A DNA stretch of 64,000 bases from Polyangiales bacterium (GCA_964202905.1 CAXNJO010000004.1:288001-352000); one strand, 5' to 3'. Shown: positions 55,667-64,000, counted from the first letter of the stretch. Notes: generated by a model not told the origin, from the sequence alone. Translations and numbers: made by a program.

Positions 55667-56038
55667 TCAACGCCCGTCGTCGATCACGAAGAGCGCGTCG
55701 CCGTCGTGTTCGAGCGGCACCGCGTCGAGGGATGCGCCCTTGCACGGGCCGTGGACGCAGAGGCCGTCCTCGCGGCGGAACCGCGCCCCGTGCGTGGCGC
55801 AGAGCAGCTCCGCGCCGTCCGGCGTGAGGTAGCGACGGCTCCCGGCGTCGAGGAGGATCGGCAGGTGCTTGCACACGTTGCGAAACGCGCGCGGCGTGCC
55901 CGCGGCGTCGCGCAGCACGAGCGCCTCGCGCCGCATCCCGCCCGCGCTCGGCGCAAAGCGGACCGCGCGCACCTCGCCGGGCGACGAGGGTGGCCAGCGA
56001 GCCCGCGGGGATGTCGGACGGGGGGCCCGCGCGCTCAC
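55667..56038 (-). CDS. Rieske (2Fe-2S) ferredoxin-like protein, with a compensating indel pair near the N-terminus
   Basis: NVCKH and CATHGARF motifs, CVHGPC; GTG at 56038 overlaps a TGA. Confidence 0.82.
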   Translation of the reverse strand: MSARAPRPTSPRARWPPSSPGEVRAVRFAPSAGGMRREALVLRDAAGTPRAFRNVCKHLPILLDAGSRRYLTPDGAELLCATHGARFRREDGLCVHGPCKGASLDAVPLEHDGDALFVIDDGR

Positions 56039-56722
56039 GCGCCCTCGGCGCGGCGCGATCTCGGTGTAGACGCGGCGCGCGCGCACGGAAACGAGCTTCC
56101 GCTCGGGCAGGATGGCGGCCGTCAGCTCGCGCCCGTAGACGCAGCCCGTGTCGAGGCCGAGCGCGAAGTCCGTGCGCTGCAGCCCGCGCACCGCGTCGTG
56201 GCCGAAGAGCACGAAGGGCGGCCCCTTCCACCGGCGCGCCCAGGGCACACCCTCGCCCGCGCGCGTCGAGAGCTTGCCGCCGGGCAGCACGCTGCGGAGG
56301 TTGAGCATCACGTCGGGATCCTGCTTGTCGAGCTTCACGCCGGGCGCGAGCCCCCCGTGCACGACGAGGGTGTCGGCTTCGAGCGCGAGCGTGTACGGCA
56401 GCGTCGCGAGCCACGCGAGGTGCGCGTCCGTCGAGCTGCGAGAGCGCCTGCTGCGCGCTGCGACCGAGGCGCGGCGGCTCCTTCTTGCGATCGACCGCCT
56501 GCTTCCAGCGGATGAGCGCCTCGTCGTGGTTGCCGCGCACCGCGAGCATGCCCGGCGTCGCGCGCGTACTCCACCACGAGGCGGCTCTCGGGCCCCTTGC
56601 GCGACGAGGTCGCCGACGAGCACGACGCGGTCGTCCTCGCCGGGCTTGCAAGCGCGCACGAGCGCCTCGAGCTCGGCGATGCAGCCGTGGACGTCGCCGA
56701 TCACGATGGTGCGCGGACCCAC
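56035..56722 (-). CDS. Metallophosphoesterase (ApaH/PrpE-like), broken by several indels
   Basis: GDVHGC and GDLV in one frame, VVEYAR in a second, VRGNHD in a third, then VHGG, FGH and LDTGCVYG back in the first. Confidence 0.85.
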
Positions 56723-58452: not shown

Positions 58453-60000
58453 TCATGGGACGGGGCGGTCGCTCGCGCAAGATGCTGCGTCCCCCGCGGA
58501 CGGCGAGGCGGAGGCCGCGGGCGCCTCCCCGAGGAAGCGTCCGCGCAGGTAATACGCGGCATACGCGAGCGCCGAGACGACGTTGCCGAGGGCGATCGCG
58601 TTCCACAGCCACGGTCGCGCGAGGCCGAGAGGGCCCGTCACGAGCCACGCGAGCGGGATCGTCAGACCAAGCAACACGACGACGTCGAGCAGGAGGCTCG
58701 GCAGCGTCGCGCCCGCGCCCGACATCGCCTGCGAGAGCACGACCCCGACGCCGAGCACCGCGTACGTCACGCCGACGCGCCACAGGTACTCTTCGCCGGC
58801 GACGAGCACGGCCGGCGACGCATCGAAGAACGCCATGATCGGCCCGGAAAATGCGAGGTAGAGCGCGCTCAGCGCGACCATCGAAGGACGCGTTGAACAA
58901 CGCCGCCCAGAGCCCGGCGCGCCGCGCGCGTTCGCGCAGAGCCCGCGCCGAGGTTGACGCCGACGTAGGTGGAGGCCGCCGCGCCCCAGCCCATGCCGAC
59001 GAAGAGCGCCATCGTCTCGAGGCGCAGGCAGATGCTGTAGGCCGTGAGCGCCGAGGCATCCTCGCGCGCTCGTGTGGTGCGCGGTGAGCAGCGCGATGAA
59101 CACGAGGATCGACGAGACGCGGAGCACGAACTGCGCGCTCGAGGGCCAGCCGATGCGCACGAGCCGGCGCAGCTCGGCGCGATCGGGCACCAGCCGCGCG
59201 AGCCGGAACGGCGGCGCATCGCGATCCACGAGCAGCATCGCGGCCCCGACGAGCACCGGCGCCGTGCGCCCGGCCAGCGTCGCCCACGCCGCACCGAGCA
59301 CGCCGAGCCGCGGCGCCCCGATCGCCTCCGCGAGCGGCGCACAGAACGCGAGCGCGGCGGGGTACTCGCCGGAGCCGTAGATGAGGAAGGGGTTGAGCGC
59401 GACGTTGAGCACATTGCCCGCGACGAGGAGCGCCGCGGCCGCGGTGCCACGGCCGCGCGCCCGCAGAATCGCGGTGATTTGCAGGAGAAAGAAGATCGAG
59501 AAGCAGCCGCCGAGCAACACCTGCAGATACGACGAGGCGAGGTCCGCGACCTCGCCCTGCGCGCGCATGACGCCGCGCACGACGACATCGTGCCCGACGA
59601 GCCCGAGCACGCCGAACGCGAGCGAGAGCGCGCCGACGAGCAGCAGCGACTGCCAGGTCGCGCGCGCGACGCCCGCTGTGTCGCCCGCCCCGAGGCGCCG
59701 CGCGATGAGCGCGACGGTGGCCGTCGAGACGCCGTTGGAGAGGATGGTCGCGACCGCCGCGATCATGTCGCAGATGCCGAGCGCCGCGAGCCCGGCGCCG
59801 CCGTTCGGCAGCTGCCCGATCATGAACATGTCGACGAGGTTGAACGTGGTGTGCAGCGCCATCCCGACGACGAGCGGGAACCCGAAGCGCGCGACCCCCG
59901 CCGCCAGCGGACCGTTCACGATGCGCGCGAGCGCCGCGTCGCCGGCCGTGCAAGCGGGCGCGTCGTCGACGTCGTGGGACGCGGTTTGCGGTGCATTCAC
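58453..60000 (-). CDS. MATE family efflux transporter, with compensating indels at about 58870-59070
   Basis: NLVDMFMIG, ARRLGAGD, LRARG, N..LNP.LI.G, GAAWAT and IGWP motifs. The segment ALTAYSICLRLE...VGVNLGAG lies in another frame. Confidence 0.92.
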   Translation of the reverse strand: MNAPQTASHDVDDAPACTAGDAALARIVNGPLAAGVARFGFPLVVGMALHTTFNLVDMFMIGQLPNGGAGLAALGICDMIAAVATILSNGVSTATVALIARRLGAGDTAGVARATWQSLLLVGALSLAFGVLGLVGHDVVVRGVMRAQGEVADLASSYLQVLLGGCFSIFFLLQITAILRARGRGTAAAALLVAGNVLNVALNPFLIYGSGEYPAALAFCAPLAEAIGAPRLGVLGAAWATLAGRTAPVLVGAAMLLVDRDAPPFRLARLVPDRAELRRLVRIGWPSSAQFVLRVSSILVFIALLTAHHTSARGCLGAHGLQHLPAPRDDGALRRHGLGRGGLHLRRRQPRRGLCANARGAPGSGRRCSTRPSMVALSALYLAFSGPIMAFFDASPAVLVAGEEYLWRVGVTYAVLGVGVVLSQAMSGAGATLPSLLLDVVVLLGLTIPLAWLVTGPLGLARPWLWNAIALGNVVSALAYAAYYLRGRFLGEAPAASASPSAGDAASCASDRPVP

Positions 60001-60137
60001 GGCACTGTGATCACAACGCAGCACGCGGGGCTGCGCAAGGAATGCGCGGAGAGGGTCACGCCAAGCCGACCCGCCGAGCCGGACGAGACCATCGTGGAGC
60101 GCCTGGACGCTCGGACCACCTCCGTGTTACCCAGACC

Positions 60138-60149
60138 ATCTTGCAAGAT
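60138..60149. promoter_or_regulatory. Perfect 12-bp palindrome in an AT-richer divergent intergenic region; candidate operator
   Basis: ATCTTGCAAGAT. Confidence 0.4.
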
Positions 60150-60394
60150 CGTTTTACATCCTGGACCCACCATGACGTCGCCTCCGGCGCACTGAGCGGG
60201 ACGCCGCGGCCCGCGCGGAGCGATGCGCCGCCCCGACGCATCAGCTCCTCGCCGCCCGGAGGGTGCCTCGCAGAAGCGGTCGCCGACGAAGTCACCGCGC
60301 GCCATTCCGCACCCGCATCTCGGGTGCATCCGGAAGCAGGCCGAACGACCATCGCTCTCCACTCGCCGTCTCTGCATCAGGGGAATCCACGCGC

Positions 60395-62536
60395 ATGAGC
60401 AACTCGAATCAGTGGGCCGAACAGATGGCCGCCATGTTCGCGGCTGCCAACGTCGAGGCGGCCAAGAACGCGCTCCAGGCGCGGGCGACGACGACCGAAC
60501 TCGAAGAGGCGCGCGAAGAGCTCCGCGCCGCCGAGGCGAAACACGCAGCGAATCTCGAAGAGTACAAAGAGGTCATCGAACGTTTCGATACCCTGGCCGC
60601 GGCGGGATGGCCCGGGAGCGTCAAAGGGTGTTTCGGGGGCGCTGGGATTCTGGCTTTCGGCTTTTTCATTTCTCTCTGCGCAGGCGGCCATCCAGTCCTG
60701 ACGGTGTTGCTATTGTTGATCGGAGGCCTTCTTGGCCTCTTCGGATTTAGCGACCTCGAGAACTGGAAACGCCTCGCCGGCGCCCTTGCTCGCGAGCGTG
60801 ATGAAGTTCGCGCGCGCGTGAAACACAGCGCAGAAACGGGCATAGCGATCACGACTCGCGGTCAGCAAATCGCAACCACGCTCGCCAACCTGGACTTAAA
60901 ATCTCGGGTCATGACCTTGGGGCAAGTCTGGTTACCACTTCGAGTCGTCCAGGTTGGCGGCTATTCCGCGCTCGTCGACGAGTCTGGATGCGTCCCGGCG
61001 ACCACGATCGCGCTTCCCGAGTTGCAGGCGAGCGACGATGTCCTCGGAAACGTCGAACGAGCGGTGAAGGCTGCCGAGCGTCGTCCGGTGTTGCTATCGG
61101 CCTCGGTCGACAACGGTCGCCCAACAACCCCCGGAATCCTTCACGGCGAGGAGCTCCAACTCGCCGATGCGATGCGCGAGTTCAGCCGGATGGTCGACGG
61201 CGCACAGGTGCACCAATCGGAGGTTCGTCTCGTGGCGCGCGAGGATGCGGTCGCCACGATGGCGCGTAAGGTCGGCGCGACTGAGAACCGTAAGGGCCCG
61301 ATCCTCCGCGCCGGCGGTGACGCGAAATCCGCGGCCGCCAACATCTCGGCCGTCCTCGGTCGGTCTCGCGCAGCCGGCACCAACACCCGCGATCGGCTCG
61401 CGCGCGCGGCATCCGACCTTCAGCGCGCGACCAACTCGCTGGGTGCGCTCCGCACACGGGCGGTGCAATCCGTACACGCCGCGGTCGCGGCCGTCGTCGA
61501 GCGCTCTCACTACGTCCACACTGTCGTCTACTGTCCCAAATGCAATCAGGTTCCGGCCTACCTCTTCCACCGTGTCGGGCTCGAAGAATCCACCGTGCAT
61601 GAGCTCTCGCCCGTCGAGATTCTCGACCGCATCGACCGCGACCCCGAATCGAGCGCACGCGTCGAGCGCGAGCCGGAGCTCCTCGACGAACTCGCGCAGG
61701 TCATCCTCAAGCTTCAGGAATTGCGGGCCATCGCGACGTCGACCGAGAGAATCTTCGAGGAGAAGCGGCAATCAGGGACCGTCGTGATCACGGAACTGCG
61801 CGCCCTCGAGGCCACCCTCCGCGCGCAGCGTTCGGAATGCGACAAACACGCACTTCAACTTCGTGGTTGCGTTCGTCGGATCGTCACCGGATCGATTCGG
61901 CCGCTGACCGAACTCTCCCGGCAGGCGTCGCTCATGCTGAACCCCGACACCCATCACTGGTCATGCGCCTCGTGCGCAACGACCTTCGAAGACCCGGCCA
62001 TCGTACGGATGGGAGAGGTGCTTCGCATCCGCGACGAACTCATGAGTCCAATGTGGAACCATCTCTGGACGGAAAAGGCGGATTTCTGTCGCAGCGAGCT
62101 CTTCCGCTCGAATGAGCAAGTCGCGAACCTGATCGAGCGCGAGACGGGCGCGATGCGCGACGTCGCGGAGCAGTACCGCGCCGACATGCGCCCCGTCCGC
62201 GAAAACCTGATTCTCTCGGTGACGAATGCCCTCGCTGGTCGGGAGCGACTGCATGCCACGCAGCAGAGCCTCGTCGCGCTGGGCGTCAGCAGCCGTGAAG
62301 CCGTCGAGAAGAACATGGAGGCCGTCGACGAGATGTTCGGCGGCGACCTCAACGCCATGCGCGCCCGCGTGGAGGCCAAGGAGACCATCCTCGTCCAGCT
62401 TCCGGCGACGCTCATCGGAACACGCCCCACGCTGCGTGACCCGATCGAGCAGCACAAGGACGCTACGGAGATCTTCCATCGGCGGTTGACGGTCGAGACG
62501 CCGCGGCTCGCGAGCGACACGGCGGGAGAAGGCTGA
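60395..62536 (+). CDS. Hypothetical membrane-anchored coiled-coil protein (713 aa) with two separated CxxC motifs
   Basis: ATG after AGGGGA, N-terminal heptad-like helix, two adjacent hydrophobic segments, YCPKC and WSCASC, lower GC than the flanks. Confidence 0.85.
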   Translation: MSNSNQWAEQMAAMFAAANVEAAKNALQARATTTELEEAREELRAAEAKHAANLEEYKEVIERFDTLAAAGWPGSVKGCFGGAGILAFGFFISLCAGGHPVLTVLLLLIGGLLGLFGFSDLENWKRLAGALARERDEVRARVKHSAETGIAITTRGQQIATTLANLDLKSRVMTLGQVWLPLRVVQVGGYSALVDESGCVPATTIALPELQASDDVLGNVERAVKAAERRPVLLSASVDNGRPTTPGILHGEELQLADAMREFSRMVDGAQVHQSEVRLVAREDAVATMARKVGATENRKGPILRAGGDAKSAAANISAVLGRSRAAGTNTRDRLARAASDLQRATNSLGALRTRAVQSVHAAVAAVVERSHYVHTVVYCPKCNQVPAYLFHRVGLEESTVHELSPVEILDRIDRDPESSARVEREPELLDELAQVILKLQELRAIATSTERIFEEKRQSGTVVITELRALEATLRAQRSECDKHALQLRGCVRRIVTGSIRPLTELSRQASLMLNPDTHHWSCASCATTFEDPAIVRMGEVLRIRDELMSPMWNHLWTEKADFCRSELFRSNEQVANLIERETGAMRDVAEQYRADMRPVRENLILSVTNALAGRERLHATQQSLVALGVSSREAVEKNMEAVDEMFGGDLNAMRARVEAKETILVQLPATLIGTRPTLRDPIEQHKDATEIFHRRLTVETPRLASDTAGEG

Positions 62537-63678
62537 TGGCCGAGGGCGGAATCAGCGCGGGACAAGCGGAGAGCATCGCCCGCAGCGTCGCGCATCAGGT
62601 GGTTGCGCCGGTCCAGCGGGAAGTCAATGAACTGCAATCACGCATTCGCGAATTGGAGGCGGAGATGGCTCGTGTCGAGGGCGCGATCAGGGACATGCAT
62701 TCGAGCCTGAGGGATGGGTTGAGTGCTCTGAGGGAGACGAATTCCGACATCCTCAAAGCGCAGATCGCCACGACGGCCGCGACGACGGTTGGCCTCACGG
62801 CCGTGCAGCAGACGAACAGCAGTGGATTCTCCAAGGTCTCCACCGATCTGAATGTCGTCGATAGCAGCTTGAAGCAGATGAGTCAGGCGCTCGTGCAGAT
62901 GGAGGTCATCCGCCAGATGCATGAAGTGAAGACGCCCGCGGAGCAGGTGGAGCGCTTCCAAGAAGAGATTGAGCAGCGATTTTCGAAGGCCGTGGAAAAC
63001 GTCAACGAGGTGCGACGACAGTACGACGCGATGCAACTCCGCGTCGCCGACGATCTCGACAAGAAACTGCGTCATATCGGCTCTCACATATACCGCGTAT
63101 TCGAGGAAGATTTCGAGGAGTTTGCGGAAGGCCCGCTCTCCGCGCCGTTCGACGCGACTATCGCGCTCGCACTCGAAGTGGACCTCGACGCCATCGAGCG
63201 CCGCGCCGAGGCCCTCGAGTCGACCCTCGCAAGTTTCGACGAAGGCCGTTTGCAGCCCCTGCTCTCCGCGCAATCCGAGCTCGAACACCTGTTCGCGTCG
63301 AAATACACCGTCGAAGGCATCACGGAAGAGACCTGCTACGTTCCCGTTTCGATATGTGAGCTTCAAGAGGGCGACCGCCCCTTAGTCCGCGTCTTGATAG
63401 ACGAAACGCCGGTAGCGACCTCTGGCGAAGTTCTGACCATGTCTCTCAAGATGTCAGCCACCGGCCGCGCAATCGCCCAGCGGGTCGACCCGCTCGTCCG
63501 CGACCGCTTCAATCGGTTTCCCAAACGCCCGATTCGCCCCGATGAGCGAAGCAGGCTGAGCGCAGCACTATGGCGACTGGCCGAAGCAGGTCAGATTCCT
63601 GCGGAGTTGCTCGACGGCTACATTCTCGTGCTGGAGCAGGCCGAGCTACAACTCCTCGACGACGGAGAGGTGAAGTGA
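62536..63678 (+). CDS. Hypothetical coiled-coil protein (380 aa)
   Basis: TGATG coupling with GGAG upstream; long amphipathic heptad-like helices; small mixed C-terminal domain. Confidence 0.85.
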   Translation: MAEGGISAGQAESIARSVAHQVVAPVQREVNELQSRIRELEAEMARVEGAIRDMHSSLRDGLSALRETNSDILKAQIATTAATTVGLTAVQQTNSSGFSKVSTDLNVVDSSLKQMSQALVQMEVIRQMHEVKTPAEQVERFQEEIEQRFSKAVENVNEVRRQYDAMQLRVADDLDKKLRHIGSHIYRVFEEDFEEFAEGPLSAPFDATIALALEVDLDAIERRAEALESTLASFDEGRLQPLLSAQSELEHLFASKYTVEGITEETCYVPVSICELQEGDRPLVRVLIDETPVATSGEVLTMSLKMSATGRAIAQRVDPLVRDRFNRFPKRPIRPDERSRLSAALWRLAEAGQIPAELLDGYILVLEQAELQLLDDGEVK

Positions 63679-63679
63679 G

Positions 63680-64000
63680 ATGCCCGAGCGAATCGATGCG
63701 GACCGCGTCATCGTCACCGGTCGCAGCGCGGGCAATCAGTTCCCGCGAACGCAGGCGACCATCCAGTATCGCTTCGAGGCCGACGGAACCGGACCGGACG
63801 GCCCGTTCGACATCGATGGATCGGTCTACGGGCGCGACATCCGCTTTCGCGGGCCAGGGACCGTGGGAGGTCCGGTGCTCGGCCGTGGCGACATCACGCT
63901 GAGCAACGAAGAAACGAGTCCGCAACGGTTCTTCGGCGGGCTGCACGCGAATGGCAACCTCGGGTGCGACGGACCGCGACGCCCGCCGATAAATTCACCC
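63680..64000 (+). CDS. Bactofilin-like/beta-helix protein, runs off the window (not in the ORF track)
   Basis: ATG 1 nt after the upstream stop, open to 64000: MPERIDADRVIVTG...FDIDGSVYGRDIRFRGPGTVGGPVLGRGDITL...FFGGLHANGNL. Confidence 0.7.
   Translation, partial: MPERIDADRVIVTGRSAGNQFPRTQATIQYRFEADGTGPDGPFDIDGSVYGRDIRFRGPGTVGGPVLGRGDITLSNEETSPQRFFGGLHANGNLGCDGPRRPPINSP

Follow-up and report, generated by a model that had tools for sequence, protein, structure and literature searches.

A conserved three-gene operon of bacteria and haloarchaea predicted to encode a membrane-anchored heterotrimeric complex

The described systems closest to the locus reported here are the pspA-ydjGHI operon of Bacillus subtilis, the bactofilins and halofilins, the archaeal ESCRT loci, and the ClyA-family toxins. 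In B. subtilis, according to PMC10936438, PspA is reportedly connected to the membrane by YdjI. The bactofilin domain is described in 10.1101/617639 as open-ended with six turns, and a bactofilin subgroup with 13 windings also exists according to PMC11459167. We examined an operon at the end of a 64,000-nucleotide stretch of Polyangiales bacterium DNA (the window; GCA_964202905.1 CAXNJO010000004.1:288001-352000, or G000:C4:288001-352000 in our numbering), and the operon sequence was also read beyond the window end. Its first three genes, here called A, B, and C, keep their order across distant carriers, and their products are predicted to bind one another at the membrane. A and B belong to no described family; for C, the most fitting label is a divergent domain of the bactofilin superfamily or a bactofilin-like domain. 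The features are as follows.

60395..62536, + strand: gene A, 713 aa; no known family; 149 related clusters at 50% identity
60620..60760, + strand: hydrophobic hairpin of A, residues 76-122; sole predicted membrane anchor of the core
61532..61543, + strand: first CxxC of A, C380-C383, in an FYCPxC motif; C380 and P381 near-invariant
61964..61975, + strand: second CxxC of A, C524-C527; completes the split zinc ribbon
62536..63678, + strand: gene B, 380 aa; soluble; no known family
63680..64000, continuing to G000:C4:353629, + strand: start of gene C, 649 aa
G000:C4:353664-355025, + strand, outside the window: gene D, 453 aa; YdjI-type SPFH domain and GYF_2-like segment

The A-B-C order was held in 55 of the 56 loci in which it could be tested, namely those with at least 1.5 kb of sequence after A. 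A profile search with A returned the 149 clusters listed above, 68 of them at an E value of ≤1e-30. A scan of GTDB yielded 26 loci, from members of Myxococcota, Burkholderiales, Sphingomonadales, and Holophagales. Scanning metagenomes with an A subgroup distant from the window's protein added 41; some of the 67 loci are near-duplicates. The carriers belong to Myxococcota, Pseudomonadota, Acidobacteriota, and haloarchaea and form three deep clades, and the C cluster of the haloarchaeal clade includes Nmlp_1929 of Natronomonas moolapensis. An earlier note on this DNA had proposed a candidate undescribed system and a test of gene-order conservation. The homologue search and synteny check showed such conservation, and no publication describing A-B-C was found in a literature search that left aside the supplements of PMC11237479, PMC10936438, and PMC11459167, which could list such loci. 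The one exception (L081:5329-13306), from a metagenome and with a GC content of 0.31, has a kinase-TPR-LRR gene, then A, and then two helical genes that are alike at the N terminus. The match of these two genes to B was not significant, and the locus is possibly a form with duplicated B. The A protein of this locus has a lead in ESM Atlas to a Thorarchaeota cluster (0.84, a lead only). Carriers are available in culture, among them Limnohabitans parvus II-B4, Novosphingobium sp. NPDC080210, and Natronomonas moolapensis 8.8.11, so that A-B-C can be tested now.

The complex was predicted with a small trio of the haloarchaeal type (L050; A residues 86-490 and C, with B as the partner), chosen so that the three chains fit, and with row-matched alignments of 49 loci. 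The interface score (ipSAE, interaction prediction score from aligned errors) was 0.77 in all three runs, compared to 0.00 in the best control. Of 157 solved complexes, 116 reached the score mark, as did 2 of 215 mismatched pairs, a benchmark that is only roughly valid for the A-B-C job. The runs shared at least 76% of contacts, with a partner predicted local distance difference test score (pLDDT) of at least 68. When A was swapped out, the score was 0.00 and the pLDDT of B was 47, indicating that B folds on A in the model. The long helix of B is predicted to coil with the two long helices of A, a segment of B to pair with the A beta-domain just past the anchor, and one face of the C beta-helix to lie lengthwise on B. 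In the numbering of the window's proteins, B 113-284 contacts A 169-208, 253-375, and 541-630, and B 269-271 pairs with A 178-180. The C residues contacting B lie about 16 apart (67-69, 83-86, 121-125, 137-141, 153-157, 169-173, and 185-189) and are joined by the C hairpin. The interface columns of B are more conserved than its remaining columns (1.73 versus 1.34 bits). Neither sequence nor fold searches of solved structures turned up a comparable complex. The model supports binding among A, B, and C and is in line with the membrane-linked multiprotein complex that had been suggested from the sequence. A membrane-anchored heterotrimeric rod is favored over a bactofilin filament, since B is predicted to coil along A and C to bind sideways. 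The extra domains after the C beta-helix and this side-on binding in the model weaken the earlier idea of a filament. The trio is conserved from myxobacteria to haloarchaea, and its complex model is a confident one with interfaces open to testing.

The AlphaFold2 model of A, built from 117 sequences (pLDDT, 88.5; predicted template modeling score [pTM], 0.59), comprises a helical hairpin at the N terminus whose tip holds a two-helix membrane anchor, an alpha/beta domain (about residues 170-280), long helices at 329-375 and 544-628, a zinc ribbon split by a helical insert, and helices at the C terminus. The transmembrane hairpin between coiled-coil segments that the earlier note described corresponds in the model to one hydrophobic stretch, residues 76-122, in a helical hairpin flanked by long helices, and its CxxC feature is present twice, at 380 and 524. 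A hydrophobic window was found in 46 of 49 A relatives versus 1 of 49 B relatives. Shorter A relatives are without the long hairpin and the insert and retain the anchor, beta-domain, and ribbon, with the spacing between the CxxC motifs reduced to 20 to 60 residues. In the proteobacterial branch, the second Cys and the second CxxC pair are gone and most cysteines are lost. No family for A or C was found in Pfam or NCBIfam. The PADLOC matches of A had E values of ≥0.0027, and Foldseek gave no match for A at an E value of ≤0.001. The fold search rows for A were generic hairpins over residues 4-177, with no clear match for the 713-residue model. In ESM Atlas, A (residues 165-700) scored 0.84 and B scored 0.77 to unnamed clusters, which are leads only. 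One A relative (P0076) is a fusion protein with two domains resembling the C-terminal domain of ribosomal protein L7/L12 (PF00542; E value, 3e-34).

B is predicted to consist of long helices and a small C-terminal domain and to be soluble. Its earlier description as almost all coiled coil needs correction for the last ~120 residues, which contain a conserved VP-containing segment that touches the A beta-domain in the complex model. Matches of B to dynamin-helical, SMC, ZorA, and LmuB models were rejected as subthreshold coiled-coil similarity, and the dynamin match occurred in 1 of 62 B relatives, the window's own. Paralogy of A and B was also rejected as not significant, with an hhalign probability of ≤8% in any subregion. 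C is composed of a right-handed beta-helix (residues 1-190), a hairpin and three helices to about residue 333, a Pro-rich linker, and a C-terminal MXAN_5187-C-like domain. Its AlphaFold2 model is a beta-helix (pLDDT, 93.7; pTM, 0.91), and the best structural matches listed were beta-helices, mostly right-handed (4phb: Z score, 12.5; root mean square deviation, 2.8; 175 residues aligned). The contact periodicity, with 16-residue spacing, suggests about nine turns or more. The C tail domain is 37 to 62% identical to the tails of three relatives, two of which (P0179 and P0187) match the MXAN_5187 C-terminal model below the cutoff; other relatives have GYF_2 or DUF6982 in this position instead. 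A distant C relative from Candidatus Micrarchaeota (P0195; E value, 1e-6) hints at a wider archaeal range. The scans of Pfam, NCBIfam, and PADLOC gave no enzymatic effector in the A-B-C core, as expected from the lack of enzyme motifs noted earlier.

The genes around the core differ between clades. D contains a Band_7_1 SPFH domain (PF13421, 61.1 bits versus a cutoff of 24) and has no membrane helix (hydropathy maximum, 1.54; threshold, 1.6), and GYF_2 matches in D relatives were below the cutoff. It follows C in 21 of the 26 GTDB loci, and the other five loci end too early. In the C tree (48 rows, with one short row left out), the loci with D group together on a single branch (support, 100/100). 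No D-type gene was detected in the 41 distant loci, many of which are on short contigs. A different SPFH gene, of the architecture DZR-Band_7-ZnR, lies upstream of A in L046. Sixteen loci have a gene, E, for a protein with four transmembrane segments. In 15 of them, E lies between C and D or, where the contig stops, behind C; in the remaining one (L018), it comes after D. Ser/Thr kinase genes stand beside the core in L021, L043, L046, L048, L076, and L081, and zinc ribbon-linker-transmembrane proteins ending in TPR, LprI, or TonB_C are also among the accessory gene products; in several loci distant from one another, the core adjoins kinase genes or genes of this zinc ribbon-transmembrane-envelope domain type. 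L101 has accessory membrane proteins containing SPOR or YARHG domains, and haloarchaeal loci have HEAT-repeat membrane proteins as accessory genes. The SPFH, four-transmembrane, kinase, and HEAT genes are clade-specific add-ons. The constant A-B-C order compared to the varying accessory genes therefore indicates that A-B-C is the invariant unit. In one locus, the gene after D (L022:15514-16848) encodes a biotin/lipoyl-attachment domain between a zinc ribbon and a transmembrane-TPR part. The host genome has a second Band_7_1 SPFH gene (L039; G000:C3:569503-570030) with no A, B, or C relative near it.

The three genes lie on the same strand; their open reading frames (ORFs) and both junctions were verified, with a TGATG overlap between A and B (GGCTGATGGCC) and a 1-nucleotide gap between B and C (GTGAGATG), as first read from the sequence. 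The prediction that the operon runs past the window was borne out when the downstream sequence was retrieved: the C stop lies 1.6 kb beyond the window, D begins 34 nucleotides further on as a fourth gene, and a GMC oxidoreductase gene is convergent on the D end. The GC content per kilobase is 0.63 to 0.66 across 60001-64000 versus 0.70 to 0.75 in the flank, and the low-GC stretch extends over about C4:348001-354000. For A to C, the GC content is 0.638, and 0.5% of 5,572 genome-wide 6-kb windows are equally low. GC content at third codon positions (GC3), which had been named beforehand as a test of atypical codon usage, is 0.77 for A, 0.75 for B, and 0.73 for C, compared to a host median of 0.926 (2,345 long ORFs), placing the three genes at the 3rd to 7th percentile; D, with a GC3 of 0.85, is nearer the host. 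The operon GC content was also below that of the flanks in 21 of the 25 other loci with a flank. Neither a genome of the same genus (G401; 80% complete) nor two from the same family (94% and 90% complete) yielded the operon, and the C profile matched 5 of 401 genomes of the host phylum, Myxococcota, and 1 of 401 in Acidobacteriota, the phylum of the Holophagales carrier, at the locus already known. In G401, the flanking MATE and GMC genes are both retained and enclose a zinc-ribbon/membrane gene of 400 aa that is unrelated to the operon, which suggests that the MATE-GMC gap is a variable site favoring zinc ribbon-transmembrane genes. The gene in this slot (L096:2883-4085; G401:C33) encodes a zinc ribbon and transmembrane protein with a Cys-rich outer part. 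The low GC and GC3 values, the lack of a match in close relatives, and the variable flanking slot support the horizontal acquisition that had been proposed. No paralogous operon copy was found in the host genome, and the 20 largest direct repeats and 25 longest inverted repeats listed include no terminal or target-site repeats around it. Upstream in the window, the genes for a MATE transporter (58453-60024) and a metallophosphoesterase (55667-56722) both have an apparent mid-gene frame change; translation turns implausible, which suggests frameshifts or assembly errors.

We consider the chances about even that A, B, and C assemble into an obligate heterotrimeric rod at the cytoplasmic side of the membrane and that this rod acts as an envelope-stress scaffold, because the case for this function is drawn from the accessory domains and from comparison with Psp and archaeal ESCRT loci. 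In such an assembly, A would anchor the A:B coiled-coil rod in the membrane and C would brace it from the side. The zinc ribbon, soluble partners, and kinases point to a cytoplasmic location. D may cluster the rods in the D-bearing branch, as YdjI/SamI does for PspA, and the occurrence of SPFH partners of two architectures, after C and before A, supports the scaffold reading. SPOR, SH3, and YARHG domains bind the cell wall. Activation could occur through accessory membrane sensors, whose outer domains (SPOR, SH3, YARHG, LprI, and TPR) would read the wall, or through Ser/Thr kinases. Host proteins may be recruited through the C and D tails, which vary between relatives (GYF_2, DUF6982, and MXAN_5187-C), and the likely output would be local stabilizing or remodeling of damaged membrane.

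Several observations weigh against an envelope-stress scaffold. The L050 trio is 14 to 24% identical to the window's proteins, and three chains with custom alignments lie outside the calibration of the prediction tool. Interface conservation is barely raised in A (1.79 versus 1.64 bits) and is not raised in C (2.00 versus 2.03 bits). Gene E and a linked sensor were not found in the window's genome. The accessory genes were hand-picked without a background count, and Myxococcota commonly have kinases. Known SPFH stress modules have PspA as their executive part, and it is missing here. The rarity of C (5 of 401 and 1 of 401 genomes) would be more usual for a conflict system than for a stress system.

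The first alternative is a system against phages or predators, in which the A-B-C rod would sense an invader protein or membrane breach, oligomerize via the A hairpin, and depolarize the membrane (abortive infection). The patchy spread, the GC content under that of the flanks, the variable slot, the variable adaptor tails, and the weak likeness of the A hairpin region to pore-former heads all fit this role. However, the 114 neighboring ORFs searched against Pfam were mostly metabolic, and just six appeared to be of a conflict or mobility type (a DNA methylase, PIN protein, helicase, IS110 transposase, S24 repressor, and type VI secretion sheath gene). This set came from the GTDB loci and L101: from 127 candidates, 15 were removed because they were near-duplicates or had been scanned before, 2 were then included, and flank ORFs were cut to ≤430 aa. 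No relatives were found in viral contigs or, with five queries, in PLSDB plasmids. The PADLOC matches were coiled-coil noise: in PADLOC 2.0, B had low-score coiled-coil matches only (≤25 bits, to many unrelated systems), and C and D had none. The anti-phage role suggested earlier is therefore not supported, given the mostly metabolic neighbors and the coiled-coil-type matches, and the loci were not seen to lie in defense islands. A defense role is unlikely but is kept in consideration because of the patchy spread.

A bactofilin-type cytoskeleton, in which C would polymerize end to end and A-B would tether the filament to the membrane for cell shaping or machinery positioning, appears quite improbable. 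The bactofilin-like character noted earlier for C does hold at the family level, with 22 of 51 C relatives matching PF04519 at an E value of ≤0.01 (best, 6e-8), and databases annotate relatives as CcmA or polymer-forming cytoskeletal protein. The top PDB sequence matches of C were also bactofilins, 2n3d (E value, 0.22) and 6ria (E value, 0.24), which are nonsignificant. In contrast, the window's own C has no Pfam match, and four relatives scored against PF04519 reached 16.8 to 23 bits, under the cutoff of 27.9. Foldseek gave no match for C at an E value of ≤0.001, and bactofilins, which as short targets score low, were not among the matches listed. Instead of six compact, open-ended windings with disordered flanks only, C has about nine turns or more, after which a folded hairpin and three helices extend as far as residue 333. 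Helix length alone is insufficient to exclude C from the bactofilin superfamily, since the 13-winding subgroup exists. The carriers are unrelated, and most of their relatives are without the operon. A ClyA/XaxAB-type multicomponent alpha-helical system for pore formation or delivery, aimed at other cells, is highly improbable. The A profile at residues ~40 to 160 does match MakA, NheB, Hbl L1, YaxA, XaxA, and SmhB (E values, 4e-4 to 0.02), but the match spans only the helix-hydrophobic-helix stretch, and an unrelated designed protein scores above it. The long hairpin is missing from short A relatives, and no secretion genes are consistently linked. Rather than two or three homologous all-helical components, the operon encodes A and B without detectable homology (≤8%), a C beta-helix, and an A protein with alpha/beta and zinc ribbon domains foreign to the ClyA family.

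A bolder form of the scaffold reading is possible though doubtful: A-B-C may be a new class of prokaryotic membrane machine, present in bacteria and archaea, in which a nucleotide-independent A:B rod with a bactofilin-derived beta-helix brace would be kinase switched and SPFH caged and would remodel or seal membranes as PspA and ESCRT-III do, with unrelated parts. If so, a bactofilin-type fold would serve as a lateral clamp instead of a filament.

Like the B. subtilis pspA-ydjGHI (pspA-samGHI) operon, as presented in PMC11237479, PMC13713150, and PMC8581546, the operon described here encodes a soluble Band_7_1-type SPFH protein alongside membrane proteins, zinc ribbons, and a protein with long helices. 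Unlike that operon, it lacks PspA and a TPM protein, D ends in GYF-like segments rather than a zinc ribbon, and the A-B-C core occurs without any SPFH gene in other clades. PspA/IM30 and TPM-domain Pfam matches were absent from A to D, 60 of the 149 A relatives, 62 B relatives, and 30 accessory proteins. The archaeal ESCRT loci with kinases and SPFH (PMC10936438) are similar in their long helical membrane-linked proteins, accessory Ser/Thr kinases, zinc ribbons, HEAT repeats, and SPFH in one clade. However, no ESCRT-III match was seen in A-B-C loci, with the A fold search filled by generic hairpins, and no Vps4 AAA ATPase was found among the core, accessory, or 114 neighboring ORFs. The ClyA-family multicomponent alpha-pore-forming toxins share the helix-hydrophobic hairpin-helix segment of A but differ in the extra domains of A and the nonhomologous partners; no fold-level match of A to them was among those listed. 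Bactofilins and halofilins (PF04519; HalA, HalB, and BacEF) share with C the right-handed beta-helix, Gly/hydrophobic repeats, weak profile similarity, and occurrence in bacteria and haloarchaea, whereas C has a longer helix, C-terminal extra domains, the constant company of A and B, and predicted side-on partner binding, and it falls outside the four bactofilin clusters described in the accessible portion of PMC11459167. If the scaffold reading is right, some proteins automatically labeled CcmA/bactofilin are subunits of another assembly, and a type of membrane scaffold is added beside PspA/ESCRT-III and flotillins. By the features compared, A-B-C is not a Psp, ESCRT, ClyA, or PADLOC system; in its proposed working it resembles an SPFH-assisted submembrane scaffold. 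The three-gene core, the archaeal branch, and the interface model are the additions made here.

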